Source: a virus (taxonomy: Duplodnaviria; Caudoviricetes). From it: a stretch of 64,000 nt of DNA. The translations under genes and the position numbers were made by a program. Location: IMG/VR virus record IMGVR_UViG_3300028591_000117, positions 59,530-123,529 of that record, one strand, 5' to 3'. Each line of letters begins with the position of its first letter. Position 1 is the first letter of the stretch. This document shows, in pieces, positions 1,360 to 64,000 of the stretch. Below the pieces are notes generated by a model that saw only the letters and a program-made list of their open reading frames with translations, did not search any database and was not told where the DNA came from.

Positions 1360-1921
1360 AATTATCTTCTCTTTCTTCTATTAATCTATCTAATAAAGTA
1401 CATGCTTGACTATACTCTCTCATATTAAAACCAGTATATGTATCACATTTAACTAAATAAGGAGTTAAATCTCTTTTAAAACCTACCATATCAGTGTCAT
1501 CATCTAAAATAACCATAACAGTTTTATCAATATCATAGTTATTTTCAATCATCCAATTCTCTATCTGAACTCCTCTAGTTTTAAAATAATTCTTATTAGC
1601 TCCATCAATAACTTCTACTCTACTGTCTAAACCACTATTTCTAAGAGCTTTTTCAACATCTTTTAATTTATGTCCTATAAGCCATGTAGATGTAATAACT
1701 ATTTTTAAATTATACTCTAAACAAAGTTTATTTAACCACCTAACTGCAAATTCATTAGATACTCTTTTATCATTAGGCCAACATAAATCGAAATAAAAAC
1801 CATCTTTTTCTACCATTCTTCTACCATCAATTGGTTCTGAATATATCATGTGAGTATTTACAACACCATCAATATCTAAAAATAATAATCTATCATAACT
1901 TAATCTTATACTAGTTACCAT
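1343..1921 (-). CDS. HAD-superfamily protein (Swiss-army-knife RNA-repair-type HAD domain)
   Basis: FLDIDGVVN, IVITSTW, RGVQI..W and VILDDDTD motifs. Start moved to ATG 1921 (RBS GAGGTGGAG) because the track start at 1960 lies inside a terminator hairpin. Confidence 0.8.
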   Translation of the reverse strand: MVTSIRLSYDRLLFLDIDGVVNTHMIYSEPIDGRRMVEKDGFYFDLCWPNDKRVSNEFAVRWLNKLCLEYNLKIVITSTWLIGHKLKDVEKALRNSGLDSRVEVIDGANKNYFKTRGVQIENWMIENNYDIDKTVMVILDDDTDMVGFKRDLTPYLVKCDTYTGFNMREYSQACTLLDRLIEEREDNYEEKE

Positions 1922-1937
1922 ACTCCACCTCAATACT

Positions 1938-1947
1938 ATTATATGAA
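1938..1947 (-). promoter_or_regulatory. TTCATATAAT promoter-like motif (copy 1 of 4; also 3040-3049, 11622-11631, 12314-12323)
   Basis: Identical 10-mer containing TATAAT just upstream of four gene or RNA starts. Confidence 0.6.
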
Positions 1948-1972
1948 AAAAGAGACTCAATTGAGTCTCTTT
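1946..1972 (-). terminator. Intrinsic terminator directly after the large ncRNA
   Basis: Palindrome AAAGAGACTCAATTGAGTCTCTTT with a longer U-tract on the minus strand. Confidence 0.85.
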
Positions 1973-2826
1973 AAATATATTAACTAGGTAGGAATTATTT
2001 ATTTACCTACAAGTTTAAGACTTAGCTCTGTTTATTAGTTGTACTCTAATGAGGAAGGATTGATTACCTTCAAGACTGCTAGCTTTAGACAATGTAATAC
2101 GGTCAAAATCTTTTTCTAAGATTTCGCGTTCCAATTTACACCTTCTGACACAGATTTGTACTGAGTGATTAATTGCCAAACTATTATACACCTTTTTACA
2201 GGCTTCAACTGCATCTACTTAATGAAAGCTGTGTATATATGCCTCGAACACGTACATATATCACTATCATCTAGTCGCAACCATCATTCTAGACTGATTA
2301 TATAAAATTTCGCTATATAAACTCGTTATTATCATAACTCTAAGTCCATTTCAGAACTGTCTATATACCACTTACTCCAAGCAAGAGTATTCGTGCACTA
2401 CATTTGTAGGAAAGTTGTCAAATCTTTCATTATTAAATATAACCATCTTATTAAACTACTATATTTATTATTATCTGGCCAAGATAATAACATTTTATAA
2501 TATAGATTGGATTGATTACCAATATATCAGTACTCAACTACCTATTTCCATTTAACACGGATTTTAGCAGACAACATCTATCAAATTTATAGGAGCATAT
2601 CTCTCCATCAACCGCGAACATTTCTCGTTCTCTCTACTGTTTAGTCGCAACACCACATGTAGACTAGAATGCATTCGATAGACTCAACTTACACTAACTA
2701 AGAATAACAACAAAACTCCCTCGGCTTTTGACCTGGCTACTTAGCTCATGACGAGTTTTTTAACTCGTGTTAGTTTCTACTCTTATAACGTCGAAATATT
2801 GTTTGAGTTACTAAGTTAATATATTT
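1973..2826 (-). ncRNA. Large (~850 nt) structured non-coding RNA, GOLLD/ROOL-class candidate
   Basis: No ORF of 60 aa or more. Ends form a 13-bp stem (2814-2826 with 1973-1985). Many local hairpins and repeated modules, a boxA-like leader upstream, a terminator downstream and a tRNA nearby. Confidence 0.75.
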
Positions 2827-2853
2827 TCAAAGAACTTAGTGTATTTAACACTA
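2824..2853 (-). promoter_or_regulatory. rRNA-operon-like antitermination leader (boxB-like hairpin plus boxA)
   Basis: Minus strand TAGTGT-TAAAT-ACACTA hairpin followed by GTTCTTTGAAAA, which matches the boxA consensus of Bacillota rrn operons. Confidence 0.6.
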
Positions 2854-2865
2854 CTCTAATTAATA

Positions 2866-3032
2866 GCTGATAATATACTTAAGATTAAAAATAGTTATAT
2901 TTGTCTATATCAAGGTACCGTCTTCGATATTCCACAGCAAACTACAGCAAATCTTCTTAATTTTGGTTTACTGACTTCATTAAGTAGAGTAACTTAATTG
3001 AAAGTCACTCTTTTAACTAGTATACTATCAGC
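2866..3032 (-). ncRNA. ~167-nt structured RNA with paired ends
   Basis: 5' GCUGAUAGUAUACU pairs with 3' AGUAUAUUAUCAGC (14 bp, one G-U). It starts about 8 nt after a TATAAT box and has three internal hairpins. Confidence 0.6.
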
Positions 3033-3039
3033 ATATTTT

Positions 3040-3049
3040 ATTATATGAA
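3040..3049 (-). promoter_or_regulatory. TTCATATAAT promoter for the ncRNA pair
   Basis: Same 10-mer as 1938-1947, correctly spaced from the 5' end of the 167-nt stem. Confidence 0.6.
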
Positions 3050-3075
3050 GTTTTTTAAACTTCCTATAATTAAAG

Positions 3076-3152
3076 TGGTAGGCAGAGTAGGACTTGAACC
3101 CACGACCAAAGCTGTATAAGAACCTCACTCTAACCAACTGAGTTATCTGCCT
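3076..3152 (-). tRNA. tRNA-Ile, anticodon UAU
   Basis: AGGCAGA TA ACTC AGTTGGTTA GAGT G AGGTT CT-TAT-AC AGCTT TGGTC GTGGG TTCAAGT CCTAC TCTGCCT A CCA: a full cloverleaf with encoded CCA. Confidence 0.93.
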
Positions 3153-3205
3153 AAAACCGTTGTTTGTTATTTAGACAGGTCCTACAACGTGAGCTGACCT
3201 CAATT

Positions 3206-3221
3206 AAATTATACCATAAAT
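3206..3221 (-). promoter_or_regulatory. Extended -10 promoter (TGGTATAAT) upstream of the tRNA
   Basis: Minus strand ATTTATGGTATAATTT; the same 16-mer recurs at 3368-3383. Confidence 0.65.
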
Positions 3222-3247
3222 AATTTAAAATGTTTATACTAAATTAT

Positions 3248-3301
3248 AAAATAATAAAACACTAGCGAGATGTAGTTATTTAACTAGTGTTTTATTATTT
3301 T
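3248..3301. repeat. Perfect 18-bp inverted repeat
   Basis: AAAATAATAAAACACTAG-N18-CTAGTGTTTTATTATTTT. Confidence 0.85.
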
Positions 3302-3367
3302 GAGAATTTCTCTACATAAGATTTTGAAACCTGTATATAAAACTAAGCACCAAATTTATATACAAAT

Positions 3368-3383
3368 AAATTATACCATAAAT
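3368..3383 (-). promoter_or_regulatory. Second extended -10 promoter
   Basis: Minus strand ATTTATGGTATAATTT, identical to 3206-3221. Confidence 0.6.
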
Positions 3384-3398
3384 TAGTAAAAAATAAAA

Positions 3399-4118
3399 CT
3401 ATTTTTCTGAAATAGTCTTATCTTCTTTCATAACAAGTTCTCTAATCTGTTCAAGTTTATCTTCAGGTAACATCATCATGCTATCTAATAGTTTTCTATA
3501 TTCATTATTTAAACTACCAAACTGACTATTATTTTGAACAGTTCTCATTGAAACATCTAAAATGTTTGTAATATCTTTATTTAAATTAGTTAATGTTGAT
3601 GATAAAGTTTTTAAGTCCATGTCATATAAATTTGAAGGGTCAAATAATCTTTCTTGTACTTGATTTGTATAAGCAGTTAACATAGGTATTCTAGAAAGTT
3701 GCATTAAAGTCATTATAGCTGACATTTCTTTTAGACGACCTTCAGTATCAGACATAAATTTATCTACAAATAAAGGTTTTTCACCTTTACCTGCAATATA
3801 ATTAAATAGGTCTTGTATATCTTCAGGAGTAAGACCTAGTGTAAGTTCATTTCTTTTAACTAGTACTGCATCAAGAGGTTTTTCTTCACAAATATTTTCA
3901 ATATTTTCAGGAATAGTATTAAAATTAATTTCTTGCTCTAAACTATCTTCTAACGTTTTATTTTCTAAAACTTTAGCCATAGGAGTATCTTCAAATTTAG
4001 TATCTGAAGGAAGTTTAACCCATTGAGCTTCTCCAGTTTCTTCATTACTAATTACTTCTGGATTTTCTTTAGTCTTAGTCAACATATTCTTTAAATCTTC
4101 ATCTGTAATTTTCTCCAT
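3399..4118 (-). CDS. Hypothetical protein (acidic N-terminus, helical C-terminus)
   Basis: 239-aa ORF with RBS GAGGAGGAG. Confidence 0.8.
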   Translation of the reverse strand: MEKITDEDLKNMLTKTKENPEVISNEETGEAQWVKLPSDTKFEDTPMAKVLENKTLEDSLEQEINFNTIPENIENICEEKPLDAVLVKRNELTLGLTPEDIQDLFNYIAGKGEKPLFVDKFMSDTEGRLKEMSAIMTLMQLSRIPMLTAYTNQVQERLFDPSNLYDMDLKTLSSTLTNLNKDITNILDVSMRTVQNNSQFGSLNNEYRKLLDSMMMLPEDKLEQIRELVMKEDKTISEK

Positions 4119-49039: not shown

Positions 49040-49073
49040 AATATATAAAAAAAGAACTCATTAAGAGCTCTTT
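49040..49073 (-). terminator. Terminator after the major capsid gene, fused to TTATATATT
   Basis: AAAGAGCTC-TTAAT-GAGTTCTTTTTTT then ATATATT. Confidence 0.8.
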
Positions 49074-49100: not shown

Positions 49101-50459
49101 TTATTCAGTTACATGAGTAATTAAACCATTTACATAGAAATCAGCACTTAGTAACTTTTTAGCATAAGAAGTTGCATAACCTTGAGTACCTAAGAAGTTC
49201 TCACCCATAATGAATTGAGTTGATGTAATAGCCATATAAGGAGCATATACATAACCTCCATCCCAAGGAGTGTCGCCATTGTAACCAACAACGAAATCAT
49301 CTGCACCAAAGTAAGGGTTCTTAACTACTAAGAATTTACCGTTTAAAGTACCAGCAACATGTGGTCCAGCTTCATTTAAGCTTGCAGCAGCTTTGAATTT
49401 TGAATGTGTTTCAAGGATATTAGCAGCATTTTCTCCAACAATTACGAAGTTACCTGTAATTCTACGAGTTTTTGCGTAGATTTTATTAGCAGCTTCAACA
49501 ATTGTTTGATAGAAAGCTTCATAGTGGTCAGCACGTGAAATACCAAATGGAACAGGTTGATTGAAAGATACAGTCATTGTAGTTCCAGAGTTAGCTAAAT
49601 CAGATAAGATTTCTCCATCGATTTCTGAACGAATTTCGTCAGTAGCTGCTCCAGCAATGATTGATTGTAAATCAACATTTTGAGTCATTTGTAAATCATA
49701 AGCTGCATCCAATGAGAAAGCAGTTGCTAATTTACGTGGTCTAGCAGTAACTGTGATATCAGTTACGATTGTTTTGATACGAGGAACTCTAATTGGAGCT
49801 GCATACATATCATGTTCATAATCTGCTTCTAAATCACTACCAGTTAAACCAGAAATTACACCAGTTTCATAATCAATTGTAGCACTACCAATATGTCCTG
49901 CTCCGTCATCAGTATCAGTACCGATTTTAACAGAACCAGGAACTACTGGAGTCCAAGCTAATTTAGCTTTTCCATCTTCAACTACTAAAGCTTCAGCTTC
50001 AACAGTTTCAGAAGTATATTTGAAAGCTGAGTCTAGTTTTTCATTTTCAACATAAACTCTTTCAAATGAACTGATTACGTCACCTTTTTCAATTTTTCCT
50101 TTGTTATCATCAAACACATTCTTTAAGTAGAATACTACTCCTGCTTTTTGCTTAAGAGGTTGAACGTTAACTAAGTCTTCAGCAACTAATGTAGGCATAA
50201 CTGCAGAAATAAGATTTAAATAATCATTTTTCTTAGCAATATCACCAACTTGAGTACCTTGAGCTTCAGTTAATTTAGCACGTACATCAAAAGCGTGAGA
50301 TACGTTTTCAAGCATAACAGCTAAATTAGATTTTTTGAAATCATCAAGTTCTCTACCATAGTTAGCATTTTCTTTAAGAGCTTTGTTAACAGCACTTATC
50401 ATACGGCTATGTTTTCTAAGTAAATGTTCATTCTCTGTTAAATATTCTCTAACTTGCAT
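49101..50459 (-). CDS. Major capsid protein (T4 gp23-like)
   Basis: VMPTLVAEDLVNVQPL, VTARPRKL, EIRSEIDGEI, GYVYAPY. Start moved to ATG 50459 (RBS AAGGAGG). Propeptide has LTE/LKE/MLE/LTE-A sites. Confidence 0.95.
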   Translation of the reverse strand: MQVREYLTENEHLLRKHSRMISAVNKALKENANYGRELDDFKKSNLAVMLENVSHAFDVRAKLTEAQGTQVGDIAKKNDYLNLISAVMPTLVAEDLVNVQPLKQKAGVVFYLKNVFDDNKGKIEKGDVISSFERVYVENEKLDSAFKYTSETVEAEALVVEDGKAKLAWTPVVPGSVKIGTDTDDGAGHIGSATIDYETGVISGLTGSDLEADYEHDMYAAPIRVPRIKTIVTDITVTARPRKLATAFSLDAAYDLQMTQNVDLQSIIAGAATDEIRSEIDGEILSDLANSGTTMTVSFNQPVPFGISRADHYEAFYQTIVEAANKIYAKTRRITGNFVIVGENAANILETHSKFKAAASLNEAGPHVAGTLNGKFLVVKNPYFGADDFVVGYNGDTPWDGGYVYAPYMAITSTQFIMGENFLGTQGYATSYAKKLLSADFYVNGLITHVTE

Positions 50460-50599
50460 GAACTTTTCCTCCTTCGTCAAATTTGTATTACATTTTTTAT
50501 TTAATAACTCATAAATAATTGTAACCCAATAGACAATATTTCTATGTTTTATTAAATAGTCTAATACTCGAAAAGTTTATTTTTTAACTTTTCATTATT

Positions 50600-50668: not shown

Positions 50669-52354
50669 CTAGTTCTTTTTCTTTCTTCCAGATTTAACTG
50701 TACCGATTACACCATCTATATTATTATCTTTTTTATATTTCTCAGCTTCTTCTTTAGTTTCAAAGTACTTTGCTTCATCTTTTTTATTTACCCATTCAGT
50801 TTTATTTTTATAATATAAAGGAGACGTATTTGTTCTAGTTTTATAAATCAAATAATACTCTTTATTAGCTTCATTTCTTCCTTTATTACTAGCTTCATTT
50901 AATTTAATACTTTCATTAATTAAAGATTTTATAGTTTTATTCATTATACTTTCTTTAATTTTTGATTGGTCTACCATTTTATTAAGACTTACTTTAGCTT
51001 TGTCACTTAATAGTTCATAACATTGATTTAATGTCATATTACCTTTTTCTATCTGGTCTTTATACCAAGTTAATACAGTTTTAAATACTTTCTGGTCAGA
51101 CATTGCTGCTTCAGTCATAGGTCTTGTTTCTGTTGTTTTATTTTCTTCAGGTATTTCATTATCTAAAATATATTGATAAACTTCTCTTGCACTAGCTTCA
51201 TCACCATAAAAGTCCTCTTCTTCATACTCAGGTTGAACATTAGCTTCATTATATCTAAATACAGTTTCATGTACAATGTCTTCTATATCAGATAATGATT
51301 TCTTTCTCCAATCAACACCTAATTGGTCTGATAAAGCATCATGACACATATCAAGTGCAGCCATATTGCAGTAACTCATAGTATGTCTTTTCTTTTCAAC
51401 TGGTCTCTCTCCTGAATAATCTGTATATGTTTCAAAGTCACTTTCAGTAATTTTCATATCTCTTTTTCTAGCTTTTTCCATAATATTTCTAATATCTGCT
51501 TCAGTATAATCATCTTCATAGATTGTATCTAAAGCTTCTCTTTTATTATGTAAACCATGATATTTTTGTACTTCATCACATATTTCAGATAAATCATAAC
51601 CGGCTATTTCTACTTCTCCTGGAGTAGGTAAAGCATTTTTATGATAATAATTTTTTAAAGCTCTTTTTACATTGTCTGAATTTCCCATTTTGTATTTTTT
51701 AAATGAGTCTAAATCAAATGATTTACCATTTAATATTGCATCATCTAATTCATCTTCAGACATCATAGCATCTTCTTTTAAACTAGTTTTATAACCTTCA
51801 AGAATATTTTTTACTTTATCATCACTATTATTATCTATTTCAGGTTGAACACTTTCAACTATCATATTTAGTCTTGCAGCTTCACATGAAGGTCTAGCAA
51901 CAAAGTCAAATGTAACAAATTGATAGTCTGGGTCTACTATATTATTAGGTCCAACTGAACCAGCACCACGAGAGCTAATACCAATATCAGTTCCATAATC
52001 TATTAACTCAGAAACTATTTTACCTGATGGAGTTGGTAGTATATCTATAGTACCCATTACACTATCACCTTCAATCCACATGTCGTTGATAACATGTGAT
52101 ACATTTTGAAGTGATATTTCTAGTCTTTCTTCTGGATGGTCAAGCTCTCCAACAAGACCATGACTTTCTATCATTTCCTTTACATAATCAGAATTAAGCA
52201 CATTTTCCCATAATTCTTTTGGATATATTCTACCATTTCTATTAGTTTTAAAATCAGATAGAACTCCTTGAATTCTTTTAAGAACATTAGCTGGCTTGTG
52301 CTCTAAAACTTTAAACTTAGACTTAGTAGACTCTGTTAATATATTTTTAGCCAT
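50669..52354 (-). CDS. Prohead protease (T4 gp21-like) with a ~370-aa C-terminal extension
   Basis: NRNGRIYP, GELDHP, SHVI, TPSG.I, GISSRGAGS, TFDFVARPS. Confidence 0.92.
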   Translation of the reverse strand: MAKNILTESTKSKFKVLEHKPANVLKRIQGVLSDFKTNRNGRIYPKELWENVLNSDYVKEMIESHGLVGELDHPEERLEISLQNVSHVINDMWIEGDSVMGTIDILPTPSGKIVSELIDYGTDIGISSRGAGSVGPNNIVDPDYQFVTFDFVARPSCEAARLNMIVESVQPEIDNNSDDKVKNILEGYKTSLKEDAMMSEDELDDAILNGKSFDLDSFKKYKMGNSDNVKRALKNYYHKNALPTPGEVEIAGYDLSEICDEVQKYHGLHNKREALDTIYEDDYTEADIRNIMEKARKRDMKITESDFETYTDYSGERPVEKKRHTMSYCNMAALDMCHDALSDQLGVDWRKKSLSDIEDIVHETVFRYNEANVQPEYEEEDFYGDEASAREVYQYILDNEIPEENKTTETRPMTEAAMSDQKVFKTVLTWYKDQIEKGNMTLNQCYELLSDKAKVSLNKMVDQSKIKESIMNKTIKSLINESIKLNEASNKGRNEANKEYYLIYKTRTNTSPLYYKNKTEWVNKKDEAKYFETKEEAEKYKKDNNIDGVIGTVKSGRKKKN

Positions 52355-54800: not shown

Positions 54801-55526
54801 TTAATATAAATCTATAGCTCCATCTGAAGTATATGTATAGTCATAGCTTAAGTCTCTACCTAAAGCATCATAATCAAAATATTGCTCTATAAAGTCTTCA
54901 TTTCCATCACTTACATAACTATCTATCATTACATCTGCTTCTTCTTCGGCTCCACCATATTCTTCTAGTTCTTCTTCAGAATATGTAGACTCTATCATAT
55001 CTATAACAGCTTGTCTATCAATGTAATTTTCTTTATTAGATACTCCTTCAAAACCAACCATATCTACATAAGCTTCACCTAATCCTGCATCATCAGAAAC
55101 TCCAGGAAACCATATATAGTCTCCTCTTTCAAGAACATCTATATATTCATCAACAGTACTATACATTCCTGTTTCCATAGCATTCTTTAAAAGCTCTTTA
55201 TCTTCAAATTCATTATATCTAATTAATTCTTGTAATTTTTCTGGAGCATTATCATACTCAGATACTTCTATAGGACAGTTATCAACATCATTTATAAATG
55301 GTTCATCTTCAGCATATTTCTTACAAAATTCTAAACCTTGTTCTGGAGTCATCCAACCATCTTTAATTCCATAAGCTTCTAAATCTGCACCATACTCATT
55401 ATAATTTTTCCAAGTATTCATATATACCATTATATTATCTGAACTGCTTTCATCTTCTTTAAGTAATCTATGAGGTTTTATAAATGACTCTTTAAGGTTT
55501 CTTTGTATACTGTTAAATATACTCAT
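54801..55526 (-). CDS. ardA: ArdA-like antirestriction DNA-mimic protein with an N-terminal leader
   Basis: VY..TW..YNE.G.....GW, FIND....EVSEY and YFDYDALGRDL; very acidic. Confidence 0.82.
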   Translation of the reverse strand: MSIFNSIQRNLKESFIKPHRLLKEDESSSDNIMVYMNTWKNYNEYGADLEAYGIKDGWMTPEQGLEFCKKYAEDEPFINDVDNCPIEVSEYDNAPEKLQELIRYNEFEDKELLKNAMETGMYSTVDEYIDVLERGDYIWFPGVSDDAGLGEAYVDMVGFEGVSNKENYIDRQAVIDMIESTYSEEELEEYGGAEEEADVMIDSYVSDGNEDFIEQYFDYDALGRDLSYDYTYTSDGAIDLY

Positions 55527-56319: not shown

Positions 56320-57852
56320 CTATATATTTCTACTTTTTATTATTCCATTATCTCTCATCTTTTGAATTATTCTAGATGCTTCAGAGTATGGTATATGTAA
56401 AGCCAACTGTAAATCTGCAGTAGATAACTTTTTATTTTCTCTAGCAAATTGAAGAGCTTTATTATAATTTTCATCTGTTTTTTCTTTTTGAGTACTCTCT
56501 TTAGGTTTATCTTGATTATCTTCTCGAGTTCCATATTTATTATTTACAGACTTAACTATATCTTCTACTTCTTCATCAGATACAAAAGCTCCTTGAACTC
56601 TCTTAGCATTAGTTGAACCTATAGGCTTATATAACATGTCACCTTTACCTAAAAGTTTTTCAGCTCCACCTTGGTCTAAAATAGTTCTACTATCAACTTG
56701 TGATGGAGTAGTAAATGCTATACGTGAGTTAATATTAGATTTAATAACTCCAGTTACAACATCAACTGAAGGTCTTTGAGTAGCTACAATTAAATGAATT
56801 CCAGCGGCTCTCGCTAACTGAGTTAATCTCTGAATTGAGCTCTCAACTTGTTTTCCAGCAGTTTGCATTAAATCAGCTAACTCATCAATTATAACTATTA
56901 TATAAGGCATTAACTTAGCATTTTTACCTGACTCATTATATTTATTAACTAAGTTATTATACGAAGCTATATTTTTAACACCAACTTTTTCAAAATCTGA
57001 GTATCTTTTATCCATAACATTAGTTAACTCATCTAAAGTATCAGCCGCTTTTTGTGGGTCTGTAACTATAGGCATTAATAAATGTGGAATTGATTTATAA
57101 GCTGCAAGTTCTACTTTTTTAGGGTCTATCAATATTAATTTAACTTGGTCAGGACTATATGTTTCTATTAAACTACATATCATTGAGTTTATACAAGCTG
57201 ATTTACCTGAACCTGTAGTTCCACCAATTAAGATATGTTGTAACTTTAAGATATCTGCTGAAACTGAATTTCCATTAGTATCTTTACCTAAAGCCATACT
57301 AACTCCAGACTTGTCTGAGTCTTTCATAACATCATCTAATGATACTGATGTATCTTCTTTATTAGGAACTTGAATACCTAAAGTTGTAGAACCTTCAACA
57401 GAACCTATACTTACATTCTTAACAGCTAAACCCATAGCTATCTCTTTATTTAAATTAGATACTTCACTTATTTTAGTACCTGGAGCAAGTTCATACTCAT
57501 ATTGAGTTACTCTAGGACCTACTTTAGCATTAACTAGTTCTACTTTAACTCCATAGTTACTAAGTATTTTACTTATCTTTTCTCCAGTCTCTTTCAATTC
57601 AGGAGATAAATTAACTTCTTCTTTATTTTCTTCTTTATACTCATTAACCATTTTTTCAAGAGATTGTTTAACCAAATGTATATCTTCTTGGTCATTATTA
57701 CATCTTTTAGCAATTTCTTGAGATGGGTCTCTAGTAAAATCACCTTTTTCTTTATCGAAATAATGACTAAATATATCCATAGCTATCTCATCAGTATCTA
57801 ACATATTATCTTGTTCATATAGATAACTTAATAAATTTTTAGTTATACTCAT
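56320..57852 (-). CDS. ftsK: FtsK/SpoIIIE DNA translocase (alpha-beta motor plus gamma domain, no membrane domain) with an N-terminal leader
   Basis: GPRVTQYE, HILIGGTTGSGKS, IDPKKVEL, IIDELADLM, ARAAGIHLIVATQRPS, GAEKLLGKGDML; C-terminal winged helix LQ..L.I.Y..A.RI...M...GII. Confidence 0.93.
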   Translation of the reverse strand: MSITKNLLSYLYEQDNMLDTDEIAMDIFSHYFDKEKGDFTRDPSQEIAKRCNNDQEDIHLVKQSLEKMVNEYKEENKEEVNLSPELKETGEKISKILSNYGVKVELVNAKVGPRVTQYEYELAPGTKISEVSNLNKEIAMGLAVKNVSIGSVEGSTTLGIQVPNKEDTSVSLDDVMKDSDKSGVSMALGKDTNGNSVSADILKLQHILIGGTTGSGKSACINSMICSLIETYSPDQVKLILIDPKKVELAAYKSIPHLLMPIVTDPQKAADTLDELTNVMDKRYSDFEKVGVKNIASYNNLVNKYNESGKNAKLMPYIIVIIDELADLMQTAGKQVESSIQRLTQLARAAGIHLIVATQRPSVDVVTGVIKSNINSRIAFTTPSQVDSRTILDQGGAEKLLGKGDMLYKPIGSTNAKRVQGAFVSDEEVEDIVKSVNNKYGTREDNQDKPKESTQKEKTDENYNKALQFARENKKLSTADLQLALHIPYSEASRIIQKMRDNGIIKSRNI

Positions 57853-57875
57853 ACATTCAATCTCCTTTCTAATAT

Positions 57876-57884
57876 TATATATAA
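57876..57884 (-). promoter_or_regulatory. TTATATATA late-promoter-like motif upstream of the FtsK gene
   Basis: Minus strand AAATTATATATAATATTAGAAAGGAG. Confidence 0.5.
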
Positions 57885-57916
57885 TTTAGAAGACTTTGTG
57901 TATTGGAAAAAGTTGG

Positions 57917-58843
57917 CTATTTTCTTCTAATAAGTTTCTTTCCAAAAGTCTCTAGCTCTTGATTAACTTTAATAGGAACTCCATTTTTATCTACAATAAC
58001 AGTTACCCACCAGCAAGATTTATCATTATTAAAACCCATACTTCTTTCATAAGGAGTTAAATCTTGTAGACAAGATGTTTGAAAACAATGCGTTATTCCT
58101 TGTTTCATATAGAAAGCTTGATGTATATGACCTGTTTGTAAAATATGAGGTCTTTCTTCCATTGGAATAGAGTCTAAATATTTTTGAAGCTTATATGACC
58201 TTGCATAAGCTTGACCTCCAATTCCATGATATAACCTAACTCTTAATTTTCCTATTTGTAAATCTTCACAATCAGAACCTAAATAATGTAAATCAGGTCT
58301 TAATAAACAAATATCTCTTAATATATCTGAACCATTATTCTTATACCACATAGCTTCATGATTTCCAGCTATTAAAAATGTTGGTATCTCAGATTGAGGA
58401 TATCTATCAACTACATAGTCTCTTTGACCAGCATAAGAAGTTTCTTTTAATTCATAAACATGCTGAGGTCGATTACTTCTACCATCAACTAAATCTCCAG
58501 AATGTAATATATAATTAACTCCTCTTCTTTCTGCTTCAGAGTATAAATATCTAAGTATATCGAGTCTATCATATTTTGAAGCAAGATGTGTATCTGAAAT
58601 TAATAATAGTTTAATAGTTTCTAAATTACAAGGTAATGAATAAACTCCATTATCTTTTATAGGTCTATCTAATTTAATAACTTTACCATCAATAATATCA
58701 AATAAATATCCTTTTTCTTTTAGCATCATAATTAAACCATATACTTGATAATACTCTAAACCTAAATCTTTACATATACTTTCTAAATCTCTACTTTTAA
58801 CTTTATTTAGATAAAGTTTCATTTTATCTAAAAGCTCTTCCAT
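57917..58843 (-). CDS. Calcineurin-like metallophosphoesterase with an N-terminal HTH-like domain
   Basis: ISDTHL, HSGDLVDG, AGNHE, LYHG, GHIH. Confidence 0.9.
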   Translation of the reverse strand: MEELLDKMKLYLNKVKSRDLESICKDLGLEYYQVYGLIMMLKEKGYLFDIIDGKVIKLDRPIKDNGVYSLPCNLETIKLLLISDTHLASKYDRLDILRYLYSEAERRGVNYILHSGDLVDGRSNRPQHVYELKETSYAGQRDYVVDRYPQSEIPTFLIAGNHEAMWYKNNGSDILRDICLLRPDLHYLGSDCEDLQIGKLRVRLYHGIGGQAYARSYKLQKYLDSIPMEERPHILQTGHIHQAFYMKQGITHCFQTSCLQDLTPYERSMGFNNDKSCWWVTVIVDKNGVPIKVNQELETFGKKLIRRK

Positions 58844-59451: not shown

Positions 59452-60006
59452 TTAATTCTCCTTATTTTTATTATTTATATTTTTACTAATACAATCTCTA
59501 CATAATGGTACATATTCTGAATTTCCAACCATTATATCTTCAGTTTTATCTACTAGACAATATGTATATTCAGCATCTCTTCCACAATGCTCACACCTTG
59601 CTTTTAATTTCACTACATCAGTGGCTATTGCTAATATATCAGGCATGATATTAAATGGAGTTAATTCTGATGTCATATCTAGTCCAGCTATATAAATATC
59701 AATCTTATTATAAATCGTTAACCAGAGAAGCTCCTGGACATCTCCAGATAAAAACTGGACTTCATCAATTATAATAGTGTCTATATCTTCAGTTATATAA
59801 TTTTTAATTTGAGATAAATCTTTAATAACATAAGCATCTAGAGTATCTTCAATAGCTCTACTTCTTATTTTACTTTTATCTCTTGTATCTTTACTAGGTT
59901 TAAAACAAATTACATTATCTATATCTTTTTTCTTTCTTACTTTTGCTGCTTGTATAAGTCCTAGTGACTTTGCTGCATACATTGGTCCTGTAAATACTTT
60001 AATCAT
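59452..60006 (-). CDS. tdk: Thymidine kinase (TK1-type)
   Basis: TGPMYAAKS, FKP..DTR, IIDEVQF, AGLD....PF, KL.ARC..CG, YVPLCR.C. Confidence 0.93.
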   Translation of the reverse strand: MIKVFTGPMYAAKSLGLIQAAKVRKKKDIDNVICFKPSKDTRDKSKIRSRAIEDTLDAYVIKDLSQIKNYITEDIDTIIIDEVQFLSGDVQELLWLTIYNKIDIYIAGLDMTSELTPFNIMPDILAIATDVVKLKARCEHCGRDAEYTYCLVDKTEDIMVGNSEYVPLCRDCISKNINNKNKEN

Positions 60007-60777: not shown

Positions 60778-60813
60778 AATATATAAAAAGAAGGCTCTAA
60801 GAACCTTCTTTTT
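60778..60813 (-). terminator. Terminator fused to TTATATATT
   Basis: AAAAAGAAGG..CCTTCTTTTT then ATATATT. Confidence 0.75.
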
Positions 60814-62338
60814 CATCAATTAAATCTTCCAGTCTATCTACTATCTCGCGCTTTAAACCTTGTTCTTCATTAGGTAATGCTTCACCAACAATGTCTGTTA
60901 GAATATCTCCTTTGTCTGTACTTGGAATAATCTGAAGTGTTTTAGCTAAGTCTGACATAATTTCAATTCTAGATAAACCTAAGTAATCTTCCATCTCAGA
61001 CCAGTCCCACTGAGCAACCATGTCATATTGATTTTGAACAGCAAGAGGTTGTTTCTGCATTTTATCTTCTTTATTACCTTCAAGATACTTATTCATATCA
61101 TCTGAAATAGCCAATAATACAAATGGTTTCATTACATAGTCAATAACAGACAAAATATGCTTACAAGCACCACCATTTAATCTTACATTATTAACTTTAG
61201 GAGCTTGTATAGCTTTCTTTAAATTAGGAATTCTATCATCAATATATAAGAAGTCATTTTTATATGCTTGATGTGCCCAAGCCCAAAAAGCAAATGACTC
61301 ATCAGTACACCAAATATTAACATCTTGGTCTTGAAAATTTTTCTTTATGTCATCAGGCATAATCTTATTTCCTGACTTAATAATATCTTCAAATGGTTTC
61401 ATATCTTTAAATTCTATTGTCTGATAATGATATCCACTTCTGGTTTCTGAAGTTGTTTTAAAATTTAATATACCAAACTTACTCATTCCTATGTAAGTTG
61501 TTTTAACATTTCTAGACTTTTGAATTCTTCTAGGGTCTTGATTTTGAGACTTCTGTTTTATTTGAGATAACTTCATTTCAACTAAATATTCTTCTTTATC
61601 TTTATGAAGAACATTACAAATAATATTCTCAATATCTTCAGAACGTTCACTATTTATATTTGATAAAGCACTATTTATACTGTTATAACCTAACTGTTTC
61701 AATTTAGCTTTTATACTAGCTTTCTCTTCTCTGCTAGCATCTTTTATTAATTGAGTTAATACTCTCTTCTTATTAATACTAGACTCACTTTCATCTAGCT
61801 CTCCTCTAGTAATTTTCCACATATCCTTAGAATAATCTTTTGGAACTTTATGAAATATCTCTTCACACATATCTTTAGCAAAATCTGGTTGTATAACATA
61901 TTCTTTATTAGCATCCCAATAATCTGATGGACCTTCATCATGCTGTCCAGCCATACTCAACCAGTCACATATTCTTTCTATAACATATAGTTTATATTCT
62001 TCTTCATCTATATTGTCTATTAAGTTATTATCTCCATCTATCCAATAATCCCAATGATGTTTATTGTTTTTTATATGATGTCTACAAGCTAATTCAAATT
62101 CTTCTTGTTTCATTCCTTCTTCATCATTAGTTGGATAAAAATGATGAAGATATGCTGACCACTCAGGTTCTTCATATTTAGAAGCATCATGCTCTTTTAC
62201 TATTTCTCTTAATTCATCTATATGCTCTTTTACATAAGGAATATCTAATGTATATAATAATTCTAATGCTTTTGATACATTTCCTATATGTCCTGTTAAA
62301 TATTCTTTATATTTTTCTATTGATTGTTCTTGAGTCAT
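60797..62338 (-). CDS. Multidomain protein: HD-like (DUF5662-type) domain plus SWIM-like zinc-finger domain
   Basis: H...V...HDASK...H...N.HH..YW...D.LS; later WCTDESF.FW...N.RL.G.ACKHI; LDE-S and LVE-M sites between the domains. Confidence 0.65.
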   Translation of the reverse strand: MTQEQSIEKYKEYLTGHIGNVSKALELLYTLDIPYVKEHIDELREIVKEHDASKYEEPEWSAYLHHFYPTNDEEGMKQEEFELACRHHIKNNKHHWDYWIDGDNNLIDNIDEEEYKLYVIERICDWLSMAGQHDEGPSDYWDANKEYVIQPDFAKDMCEEIFHKVPKDYSKDMWKITRGELDESESSINKKRVLTQLIKDASREEKASIKAKLKQLGYNSINSALSNINSERSEDIENIICNVLHKDKEEYLVEMKLSQIKQKSQNQDPRRIQKSRNVKTTYIGMSKFGILNFKTTSETRSGYHYQTIEFKDMKPFEDIIKSGNKIMPDDIKKNFQDQDVNIWCTDESFAFWAWAHQAYKNDFLYIDDRIPNLKKAIQAPKVNNVRLNGGACKHILSVIDYVMKPFVLLAISDDMNKYLEGNKEDKMQKQPLAVQNQYDMVAQWDWSEMEDYLGLSRIEIMSDLAKTLQIIPSTDKGDILTDIVGEALPNEEQGLKREIVDRLEDLIDEKEGS

Positions 62339-62358: not shown

Positions 62359-62390
62359 AATATATAAAAAAAGAACTCTTAGAGTTCTTT
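62359..62390 (-). terminator. Terminator fused to TTATATATT
   Basis: AAAGAACTCT-A-AGAGTTCTTTTTTT then ATATATT. Confidence 0.8.
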
Positions 62391-62910
62391 AATTTATTTT
62401 CTTAAAACCAAGACTATCAACATAGTATAGTTCATTATTAATTTCTATAATATCACTTACAGAAATACTTCTAAACTTACCTTGTACATTAAACTCATCT
62501 TTATTAGTATTTCCTAAAACAAATATTTGTTCTAATACTTCATCAATAGAACCTTTCTTAGGTAATACTATAGAAGCGACAGCTTCATAGTCATTCATGT
62601 TTATATCATCTTTAACATAGTCATAAGCCATAAAAGCATACTTACAATTAGCTACATCTTTTATTTGATATATAGTTGCTGAATAACTTGTAGTATCTTC
62701 ATCTATATAACTATATTCAGTAAGAGCTTCATATTGTTCCATACGAATACTATTTAGCTCGAGTATCATTTTCTCTATAGCACTTACAGCTCTTTCATCT
62801 TTACACGCAGCTCTTACTTTTAATAAAGCTTGCTCAGCATCATTACATAAATAATACCAATCTTCTTTATTCTCTTTTAAATTAGAAAGTATCTGATTAT
62901 TTACTCTCAT
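62389..62910 (-). CDS. YodL-like domain protein with leader
   Basis: IYQIK...F..Y...Y..V...LEQIF...N...RSISVSDII...YYVDSLGF. Start moved to ATG 62910 (RBS GAGGAGG): MRVNNQILSNLKE. Confidence 0.75.
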   Translation of the reverse strand: MRVNNQILSNLKENKEDWYYLCNDAEQALLKVRAACKDERAVSAIEKMILELNSIRMEQYEALTEYSYIDEDTTSYSATIYQIKDVANCKYAFMAYDYVKDDINMNDYEAVASIVLPKKGSIDEVLEQIFVLGNTNKDEFNVQGKFRSISVSDIIEINNELYYVDSLGFKKIN

Positions 62911-62911
62911 C

Positions 62912-64000
62912 TTATACCTCCTCATATTTTGCTATATTCTTTAAATCTTTAAAGCTATAAGGTTCTCCACAATAAGGACATGTATATTCAGTTCCGTAGC
63001 CTTTATAGAACTCTCTATCAAAATCATTTATACTTTTAATTGACTTATGACAATATGAACAAACGTAATTTTTAATTTTTCTGTCATATAAACTATCTAA
63101 AGTAGCTTCTTCATCAGAACCAGGTTCTATAGCTAAGTCTCTTTTAACATCAGATATATCTTCATTAATTACTCTACCATGATATTTTGAAGGATACTGT
63201 TTTATTAAATTATTATTAACTAACTCATTTATCTCTTGTTCATTATAATATCCTAGTTTAATTAAAGCATCACATATATCTTGGTATCTACCTATAAAAT
63301 CAACAAAATACATAGGTCCTTCTTTATGAATTTGAAAGTTTAACTTAGGAAATTCAGGTTTATATGTAGACCATATCATACTTTGTGCATCAGATTTATC
63401 TTCTGACTCAGCATTAGAATAAATGTATAACTTCTCTTCTGACTCATTTAAATTTTCTGTTTCATTAAACCAATAGTCCATACCTTCATCATCATTCCAA
63501 TGCTCTAGATAGTAATCATAAATTCTCTTAGATATTTTATCAAAACTTAAAAATGAGATATATTCAGGTAATAATAAACCTTCACCACCAGAAATCCATT
63601 GAGGACCTTTAGACTCATCACGATAGGTATATGGTTTATCTTCACTATTGTGTCTCTTTGCTCTATTATCTAAAAAGAATGCAGTATAGTCCATATTACC
63701 GGTATCCATAAATCCAACTAGTTTTCCATCTTCTATGAAGTCAACTTCATACTCATCAACTTCCATAAACTCTCTTGCAAATTTTCCTTCTTCTGGGTCA
63801 AGGAAGCCATAATATACATTATAACCTAGTTTATTATCAATTTTACCTTTACAATACTCGATAAATTTATCTTTATAACTCATTTTACTTGGTTCTGCTT
63901 TTGGTTCTTCAACATCTTCTGACTCATTCATACTAAGACCTAACTTTTTATTAACTAAAGATATAACTTCTTCATCAGTCATATCTAAACTAAAGTCATC
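62912..64000 (-). CDS. Partial multidomain putative head protein (5' end beyond the window) with a C-terminal zinc ribbon
   Basis: The frame is open to the window edge (DDFSLD-MTDEE). MNE-S, LNE-S and INE-D separate segments; C-terminal C..C...CPYC. Confidence 0.7.
   Translation of the reverse strand, partial: DDFSLDMTDEEVISLVNKKLGLSMNESEDVEEPKAEPSKMSYKDKFIEYCKGKIDNKLGYNVYYGFLDPEEGKFAREFMEVDEYEVDFIEDGKLVGFMDTGNMDYTAFFLDNRAKRHNSEDKPYTYRDESKGPQWISGGEGLLLPEYISFLSFDKISKRIYDYYLEHWNDDEGMDYWFNETENLNESEEKLYIYSNAESEDKSDAQSMIWSTYKPEFPKLNFQIHKEGPMYFVDFIGRYQDICDALIKLGYYNEQEINELVNNNLIKQYPSKYHGRVINEDISDVKRDLAIEPGSDEEATLDSLYDRKIKNYVCSYCHKSIKSINDFDREFYKGYGTEYTCPYCGEPYSFKDLKNIAKYEEV

Follow-up and report, generated by a model that had tools for sequence, protein, structure and literature searches.

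A soluble FtsK-type motor with a putative T4-style leader in the head-gene region of a 123.5-kb phage contig

The virion RNA polymerase of phage N4 is a nucleic-acid motor enzyme that is held in the capsid, injected with the DNA and helps the genome to enter the cell, and SftA of Bacillus subtilis is a soluble FtsK paralogue with a gamma domain whose long N-terminal region takes it to the divisome. Phage homologues of FtsK/SpoIIIE have been noted for about two decades, to our knowledge without any assigned function. The present analysis concerns one such homologue, encoded in a stretch of 64,000 nucleotides (IMG/VR record IMGVR_UViG_3300028591_000117, positions 59,530 to 123,529; below, the window), which makes up the latter half of one phage contig of 123.5 kb, has a G+C content of 28% and carries all its genes on the minus strand. 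The encoded protein is a membrane-less FtsK motor, and comparison supports its N-terminus as a member of the leader class that is common to the capsid protein, protease and portal of this phage family. The N4 polymerase differs from it in family and virion type, and its role was shown by experiment, whereas a hypothesis is put forward here. Tying the phage FtsK family by sequence and gene order to a T4-type head-cargo system gives the first concrete, testable hypothesis of its function.

In phage T4, IPI-III are directed to the head core by N-terminal propeptides of 10-19 residues, which gp21 then removes; residues 4 and 7 of the propeptide are important in targeting, residues 8 and 10 in processing (PMC9026906). 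Alt and beta-galactosidase fusions have been packaged and delivered via T4 head targeting (PMC9026906, PMC3012670). The locus described here resembles the IPI-III/Alt system in its homologous S77/gp21 protease and gp23-type capsid, in a putative propeptide that ends in L/I-x-E (13 residues as against 10-19), and in a leader common to otherwise unrelated proteins encoded near the head genes. It differs in that the leader sequence is unlike that of T4 and in that the putative cargo is a 58-kDa ATPase motor of the hexameric kind, and no such motor figures among the described T4-type cargo. FtsK/SpoIIIE homologues are common in Bacillus phages (PMC4113786, PMC4197329). Together with those of Cluster J mycobacteriophages (Omega gp203), they are likewise phage motors that lack the membrane domain and have a gamma domain unlike the bacterial one (PMC3706429, PMC4113786, PMC4197329); as judged from their descriptions, they are set apart by genes that lie among non-structural genes and by the lack of a reported leader or of a reported tie to the head module. 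The features of the gene in the window are as follows.

56320..57852, minus strand: membrane-less FtsK/SpoIIIE translocase gene, 510 amino acid residues plus stop (open reading frame, Pfam)
57814..57852, minus strand: leader, residues 1-13 (MSITKNLLSYLYE), a putative capsid-targeting propeptide with a putative protease site after Glu13 (translation, motif, position-specific scoring matrix)
57598..57813, minus strand: lineage-specific acidic N-domain, residues 14-85, folded core 20-75 (model confidence by predicted local distance difference test, pLDDT; protein search)
57361..57630, minus strand: FtsK alpha domain (PF17854), residues 75-164 (Pfam E 3e-21, 75.9 bits, cutoff 22.9)
56533..57321, minus strand: beta (RecA-like) motor domain, residues ~178-440 (Pfam, PDB match)
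57199-57222, minus strand: Walker A, GTTGSGKS, residues 211-218 (sequence)
56881-56898, minus strand: Walker B, IVIIDE, residues 319-324 (sequence)
56323..56481, minus strand: gamma winged-helix domain without its wing, residues 458-510 (Pfam, comparison)

The open reading frame is a real FtsK/SpoIIIE motor, and it is soluble. Residues 178-363 matched the Pfam family FtsK_SpoIIIE (PF01580) at E 3e-61, ATQRPS (the arginine-finger region) is intact at residue 357, and the columns of Walker A, Walker B and ATQRPS were invariant in the alignment of phage and bacterial rows. Like bacterial FtsK/SpoIIIE (2IUS, 2IUT, 6T8B), the protein has alpha and beta domains with intact motifs, together with a gamma domain that is only partly matched; its motor is 44-46% identical to those of Escherichia coli and Pseudomonas aeruginosa FtsK and 45% identical to 6t8b. 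The AlphaFold model (34 orthologues) had a mean pLDDT of 77.7 and a TM score of 0.83 to the DNA-bound translocating structure 6T8B. The double-stranded DNA translocase looks active, and hexamer formation and ATP-driven translocation are predicted. No membrane segment was found: the top 19-residue hydropathy was 1.23, on the Walker B strand, as against 2.92 in bacterial FtsK, and the N-terminal domain with four transmembrane segments (PF13491) had no Pfam match in the phage protein. These two results confirmed the absence of a membrane domain stated in a preliminary description of this DNA, which had also reported complete alpha, beta and gamma domains with intact Walker motifs; the alpha and beta domains and the motifs were upheld by Pfam, and the completeness of gamma was not, as its wing is deleted. 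Where bacterial FtsK has the four-segment membrane domain and a long linker, the phage protein has the 13-residue leader and a 72-residue phage-only domain. SftA, compared by description, is also an FtsK motor that has gamma and lacks a membrane domain; the phage protein differs in its N-domain of 72 residues, which occurs in phage orthologues only.

To examine the leader, the 154 open reading frames were searched de novo for motifs in their first 30 residues, with the initiator Met masked. The motif [N/E]-[Q/S/N]-I-L-x-[N/Y]-L-[K/T/Q]-E was recovered, its members being the major capsid protein (MCP), an ArdA-like protein, a YodL-like protein, several small neighbours and FtsK. When the scoring matrix was built without FtsK, the FtsK leader scored 8.6 bits; this score was equalled or exceeded at 13 of 33,870 interior positions, which corresponds to p ~0.008 for the 22 N-terminal residues of a single protein. 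The leader is real and not a chance match, with modest support from the matrix taken alone, and the comparative data weigh more. Seven orthologues, found by the N-terminal region alone, keep MSITKNILxNLYE, and L11 and E13 were at least 90% conserved in 34 gamma-bearing orthologues, in which the adjacent residues vary. Among 79 phage FtsKs, 21 of the 24 N-terminal types have [LI]-x-E ending at residues 5-16; the control rates were 16% of the open reading frames that lie beyond the head and cargo regions of the window's genome, and none of 36 bacterial FtsKs. These 24 types are not independent; h-x-E nevertheless persists in no fewer than four or five architectures whose N-domains are unrelated. 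Leaders of other clades that end in this way include MSRNIFYKLNE, MKLKLVE, MRIKSRLLE and MKKTLSNLILESFNE, so that the leader is kept across FtsK clades with unrelated N-domains. The portal, protease and MCP bear the same kind of N-terminus, as do FtsK neighbours in three further loci (L010, L012 and L013); because the portal, protease and MCP, as internal controls, carry the motif, it can be tied to prohead residence. The predicted leader helix, with its low pLDDT and a break at 11-16, has the look expected of an exposed cleavage site. Taken together, comparison supports the view that the FtsK N-terminus belongs to the leader class of the phage family, common to capsid, protease and portal.

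These N-terminal data bear on the chief competing explanation, according to which the phage would make the DNA translocase in the infected cell for use in the cytoplasm, on replicating or concatemeric phage DNA, where it might for example clear proteins or branches before packaging, separate genomes, or act with the adjacent nuclease-like metallophosphoesterase; L-x-E would then be incidental or serve another purpose. We regard this explanation as doubtful, though a serious contender. It leaves unexplained why 21 of the 24 N-terminal types, with their unrelated N-domains, keep h-x-E and why bacterial FtsKs lack it; the existence of a leaderless lineage speaks in its favour.

The best-scoring copies of the leader were borne by a YodL-like protein (PF14191, E 3e-11; 62389-62925) and by a weakly ArdA-like protein (23.6 bits, below the Pfam cutoff; 54801-55526), and on this account the putative cargo set looks like host-takeover factors.

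The head machinery and the portal genes of the phage and its relatives are the following.

50669..52354, minus strand: prohead protease of the T4 gp21 family (Peptidase_S77, E 5e-19) with a long C-terminal extension (Pfam, PHROG)
49101..50480, minus strand: gp23-type MCP (matches T4-like phages)
1876-3858 of the genome (57.6 kb before the window): T4-type portal gene; the corresponding genes of relatives lie at L001:5283-7169, L011:7005-8888 and L012:3097-5115

The protease and MCP matched phrog_207 and phrog_138. The protease begins MAKNILTE/S (the slash marks the putative cut), and the N-terminal region of the MCP has several L-x-E sites (YLTE/N, ALKE/N, MLE/N and KLTE/A), of which KLTE/A stands at what we take to be the T4 gp23 position where the mature capsid protein begins. 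The portal N-termini of the FtsK phage and its relatives are leader-like and end in L-x-E (MALFSRKSKQSLNE/A and MGIFNRKSRAILDNLKE/S; e.g. ...SLNE/A and ...NLKE/S); the T4 portal is not known to undergo processing of this kind.

In every lineage fetched, the FtsK gene lies within the portal-to-protease head-gene region. The order in the window and in the related loci L002 and L004 is TK, DUF1599, ThyX-like, metallophosphoesterase, FtsK, variable leader-tagged genes, S77 protease and gp23; L010 has the same downstream order, with FtsK upstream of protease and MCP; L012 has portal, the DUF5662 gene, FtsK, TK, further genes and protease; and in L001 and L011 FtsK comes directly after the portal. 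A purely cytoplasmic translocase leaves this fixed place among leader-tagged genes unexplained. The same maps also provide support for it, given that the gene directly follows TK, ThyX-like and Mre11/PolD-small-subunit-like metallophosphoesterase genes and that TK directly follows FtsK in L012.

The position of the gene, together with the same leader and head-module evidence, would also suit a prohead-core component that is not delivered, one that acts in assembly or at the start of packaging near the portal and is then degraded or expelled with the scaffold. Its place directly after the portal in L001 and L011 agrees with such a role, as does the precedent of T4 genes 67 and 68: these stand between the genes for the portal and the protease, and their products are core proteins that are cleaved to fragments and exit the head (PMC9026906). 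We nevertheless judge this explanation improbable: no ATP-driven role inside the prohead is known, the match of FtsK to the terminase large subunit is weak (phrog_2666), and the phage has its own large packaging-type open reading frame upstream of the portal. Moreover, the motor has only six [LI]-x-E sites, close to the chance expectation, which sets it apart from scaffold proteins that are cleaved into fragments.

In the explanation preferred here, the conserved leader with its suitable length and chemistry, the homologous T4 machinery, the head position and the leader style of the prohead proteins make targeting of FtsK to the prohead plausible and, in our judgement, rather probable. The FtsK gene would be transcribed with the head genes, and the 13-residue amphipathic leader would bind the prohead core in the manner of a T4 capsid-targeting sequence. 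The gp21-family protease would then cut after Glu13, and the matured protein (N-domain, alpha, beta and wingless gamma) would stay with the packaged DNA and leave with it at infection. In the new cell, hexamers would assemble on the DNA and translocate on host ATP, which would remove host proteins bound to the incoming genome, help to pull that genome into the cell, or both; sequence guidance by gamma would be altered or dispensable. Targeting, cleavage, virion retention, ejection and action on DNA are steps that we infer, and the full chain, from a leader-targeted and cleaved protein to one that is retained in the virion, ejected and active on entering DNA, is offered tentatively, with a chance of holding that is somewhat below even. 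In its boldest form, that of a capsid-packed motor with a T4-style leader, injected with the genome as the first virion-delivered DNA translocase and pulling the DNA in or sweeping host defence proteins off it, the proposal is rather unlikely. If virion delivery were true, the protein would represent a new class of injected enzyme and would bear on the entry of large genomes into Gram-positive cells and on escape from host DNA-binding defences; it would also widen the cargo range of capsid-targeting leaders, a point of importance for protein delivery by phages. Should the motor prove not to be packaged, the conservation of the leader would still have to be explained.

Several observations weigh against delivery in the virion. 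A loose h-x-E near the N-terminus is common in this AT-rich proteome (36-41%), and the score of the FtsK leader is modest. One lineage (L013) has no leader and starts at the N-domain behind a strong ribosome-binding site, for which reason its FtsK works without one. The observed/expected ratio of [LI]-x-E was 0.91 in phage FtsKs and 0.80 in bacterial FtsKs, with no depletion in the mature motor. Leaderless TK, ThyX-like and metallophosphoesterase genes lie in the same interval as FtsK, so that position alone does not mark head proteins. The motif upstream of the gene, which had been described as late-type, failed as such, since its score on the matrix of structural-gene promoters is background. 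A delivered motor would require no fewer than six refolded copies in each cell. The family has no known cultured member, and the cultured phages with the closest capsids (HSE3, LIS04 and GXN1) lack the gene in the head module: HSE3 and GXN1 have no FtsK, and LIS04 has only one, 34% identical, elsewhere in its genome. Finally, a literature search found no virion-borne or injected FtsK, nor any paper on an FtsK leader or on a link between FtsK and the head module.

The N-domain that follows the leader was examined by modelling and by protein search. Residues 1-85 contain 21 acidic and 10 basic residues (net -11). Two models agree on a helix of low confidence at 2-15 with a break at 11-16 that is flexible, on a small fold at 20-75 (predicted, pLDDT ~80-86) and on a short floppy link to the alpha domain. 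The claim that an acidic segment of about 85 residues replaces the membrane domain therefore held as to acidity; as a mere linker it did not, given the leader and the predicted folded domain at 20-75. When 1.84 billion representative proteins were searched, the N-domain was found only in FtsK orthologues and fragments. The best match in the fold search had a VIA Z of 6.1, a value within the noise for models made of helices, and no clear match was obtained; against a language-model atlas the score was ~0.8, at chance level. Two leader sites had been proposed, LYE-Q and, just before the alpha domain, LKE-T. The former is present, with LYE at 11-13 followed by Q. LKE is likewise present at 86-88, followed by T, and was rejected as a protease site, because it falls inside the start of the alpha-domain alignment and its h-x-E is kept only in a close clade.

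The phage FtsK family comprises at least 79 distinct proteins on ~120-kb contigs of uncultured gut and rumen phages with T4-type heads. Clade A proteins have ~520 residues and a gamma domain; several gamma-less lineages have 525-716 residues and very different N-domains, some with a zinc ribbon, and nearly all of them open with a short peptide whose end is h-x-E. An alpha-beta core tree was built from 27 phage rows and 14 bacterial FtsKs (best hits only). The phage FtsKs were split from the sampled bacterial FtsKs with support of 100/99, and clade A (95/90) was nested among the gamma-less lineages. This topology fits a single capture followed by N-domain swaps and repeated loss of gamma; as the bacterial sample consists of best hits only, no donor is named. 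Because the leaderless proteins P0028 and P0029 lie inside clade A, loss of the leader is secondary. Scans of IMG/VR returned a single related locus. A distant gamma-less relative of 928 residues (L001:7308-10094), encoded directly after the portal, has an intein in its Walker A loop (GGTTG/C...HN/SGKS).

Among cellular proteins, FtsKs of Bacillota come closest, at 47-49% identity, which would be in keeping with a host-directed factor, made in the cell or injected, that acts on the host chromosome or divisome, for instance by blocking division or sporulation-type DNA transfer or by stripping the nucleoid. Reviews of Bacillus phages have proposed roles in sporulation or segregation for phage FtsK/SpoIIIE homologues (PMC4197329, PMC4113786), and a leader-tagged YodL-like protein, of a cell-shape factor family, is encoded in the same block. 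The protein is, however, without a membrane or divisome-binding domain, its N-domain occurs only in phage orthologues, only one of the three residues that read the host guide sequence is kept, and many lineages are without gamma. We therefore rate action on the host as very improbable.

The gamma domain was compared with its profile and with its relatives. Residues 458-508 matched PF09397 (FtsK_gamma) at E 5e-10, with 39.4 bits against a cutoff of 30.6 and over profile positions 2-52 of 63. When the gene is set against those of L002 and L004, an in-frame deletion of 33 nt takes out the wing, and an AAG-to-TAG change adds an early stop.

56323-56340 of the window, compared with L002:11540-11581 and L004:4770-4813: gamma deletion region, junction after Lys506 at ~56334/56335

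P0043, from another lineage, also ends before the wing, and gamma is wholly lost in several lineages. The gamma helix reads ADLQLALHIPYSEASR, aligned to GVQRQFRIGYNRAAR in E. coli, and is non-canonical; the alignment bore out the earlier reading of this helix. In E. coli, the FtsK orienting polar sequences (KOPS) are read by residues N1296, R1300 and E1303 (PMC2533119). The corresponding positions of the phage protein read S/R/Q, a difference from bacterial FtsK to which the wing deletion adds in the window genome. With one of three reading residues kept, recognition of host-type KOPS or SpoIIIE recognition sequences (SRS) is unlikely.

The search for strand-skewed octamers that had been suggested earlier was run, with the strand skew of 7- and 8-mers compared with 150 synonymous-codon shuffles; no polar guide motif was found in the genome by this search, and the known KOPS/SRS 8-mers were absent from it. 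The only GC-rich outlier was AGACCCA (17:0, z 8.3), and all its 16 genic copies are Asp-Pro codon pairs (xxA-GAC-CCA). This skew arises because total avoidance of GATC forces Asp-Pro to be written GAC-CCA, and AGACCCA was rejected as a KOPS-like signal on account of this codon-pair effect. GATC itself is wholly absent from the 64-kb window (0 found, 154 ± 13 expected), which is total avoidance of the Sau3AI/MboI/DpnII-type site. GAGAAG was also rejected as a guide, its 92:8 skew being mostly coding bias (73:9 in shuffles). Altered or lost sequence guidance, as put forward in the preliminary description, fits the single KOPS residue kept, the deleted wing, the many lineages without gamma and the lack of a polar motif; it is a fair reading of the sequences, and gamma is not central to the function of the family. 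The retention of gamma in clade A would, for its part, fit sequence-aware work on DNA in the cell and so a cytoplasmic translocase.

Two sharp promoter-like classes were found genome-wide: class 1, TTTTTCATATAATA, stands before replication and nucleotide genes, and class 2, (terminator)-TTTTTATATATTAxTTTAGA, before structural genes. They were compared with the element upstream of FtsK.

1945 and 11629: class 1 examples in the window
60786, 62367, 49048, 42788 and 14238: class 2 examples in the window
57853..57916, minus strand: upstream intergenic element, sigma-70-like TACACA-17-TATAAT (comparison with L002 and L004)
49051..49073, minus strand: first convincing terminator downstream of FtsK, just after the MCP gene

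The ~60-nt stretch upstream of FtsK (CCAATACACAAAGTCT...TTATATATAATATTAGAAAGGAG) is near-identical at L002:9940-10000 and L004:3177-3238, and the FtsK proteins of the window, L002 and L004 are only 73-76% identical; as it is near-identical in three phages, the element is probably regulatory, of no assigned class. The part TTATATATAATATTAGAAAGGAG resembles a hybrid of both promoter classes. On the position weight matrix of the structural-gene class, the element scored 9.2 bits, a score reached by 47 coding-strand windows and 43 windows of the opposite strand and hence background; its score was background on the matrices of both classes. No convincing terminator was found between the structural-class promoters (~62367 and ~60786) and 49051-49073, and the resulting promoter-to-terminator unit holds FtsK, the leader-tagged genes, the protease and the MCP gene. 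A weak hairpin inside the FtsK gene (56817-56801) was discounted as a terminator because its tail is poor. For the cytoplasmic explanation, previous studies of other phages offer two parallels: the FtsK/SpoIIIE gene of Bacillus phage Fah is delayed-early (PMC4113786), and the membrane-less FtsKs of Cluster J mycobacteriophages, with their odd gamma, are presumed to act on phage DNA (PMC3706429).

Two neighbours of FtsK were also noted. The metallophosphoesterase encoded just upstream (57917-58843) had the archaeal PolD small subunit (DP1, Mre11-like) as its best NCBIfam match, at E 1.5e-14, and also matched a PHROG annotated as DNA repair exonuclease. A DUF5662 protein, for which no solved relative and no NCBIfam match was found, accompanies FtsK in all lineages examined (window 60797-62338; L010:6486-8417; L011:11844-14618; L012:7446-9020), and in L012 the DUF5662 and FtsK genes overlap by 20 nt.

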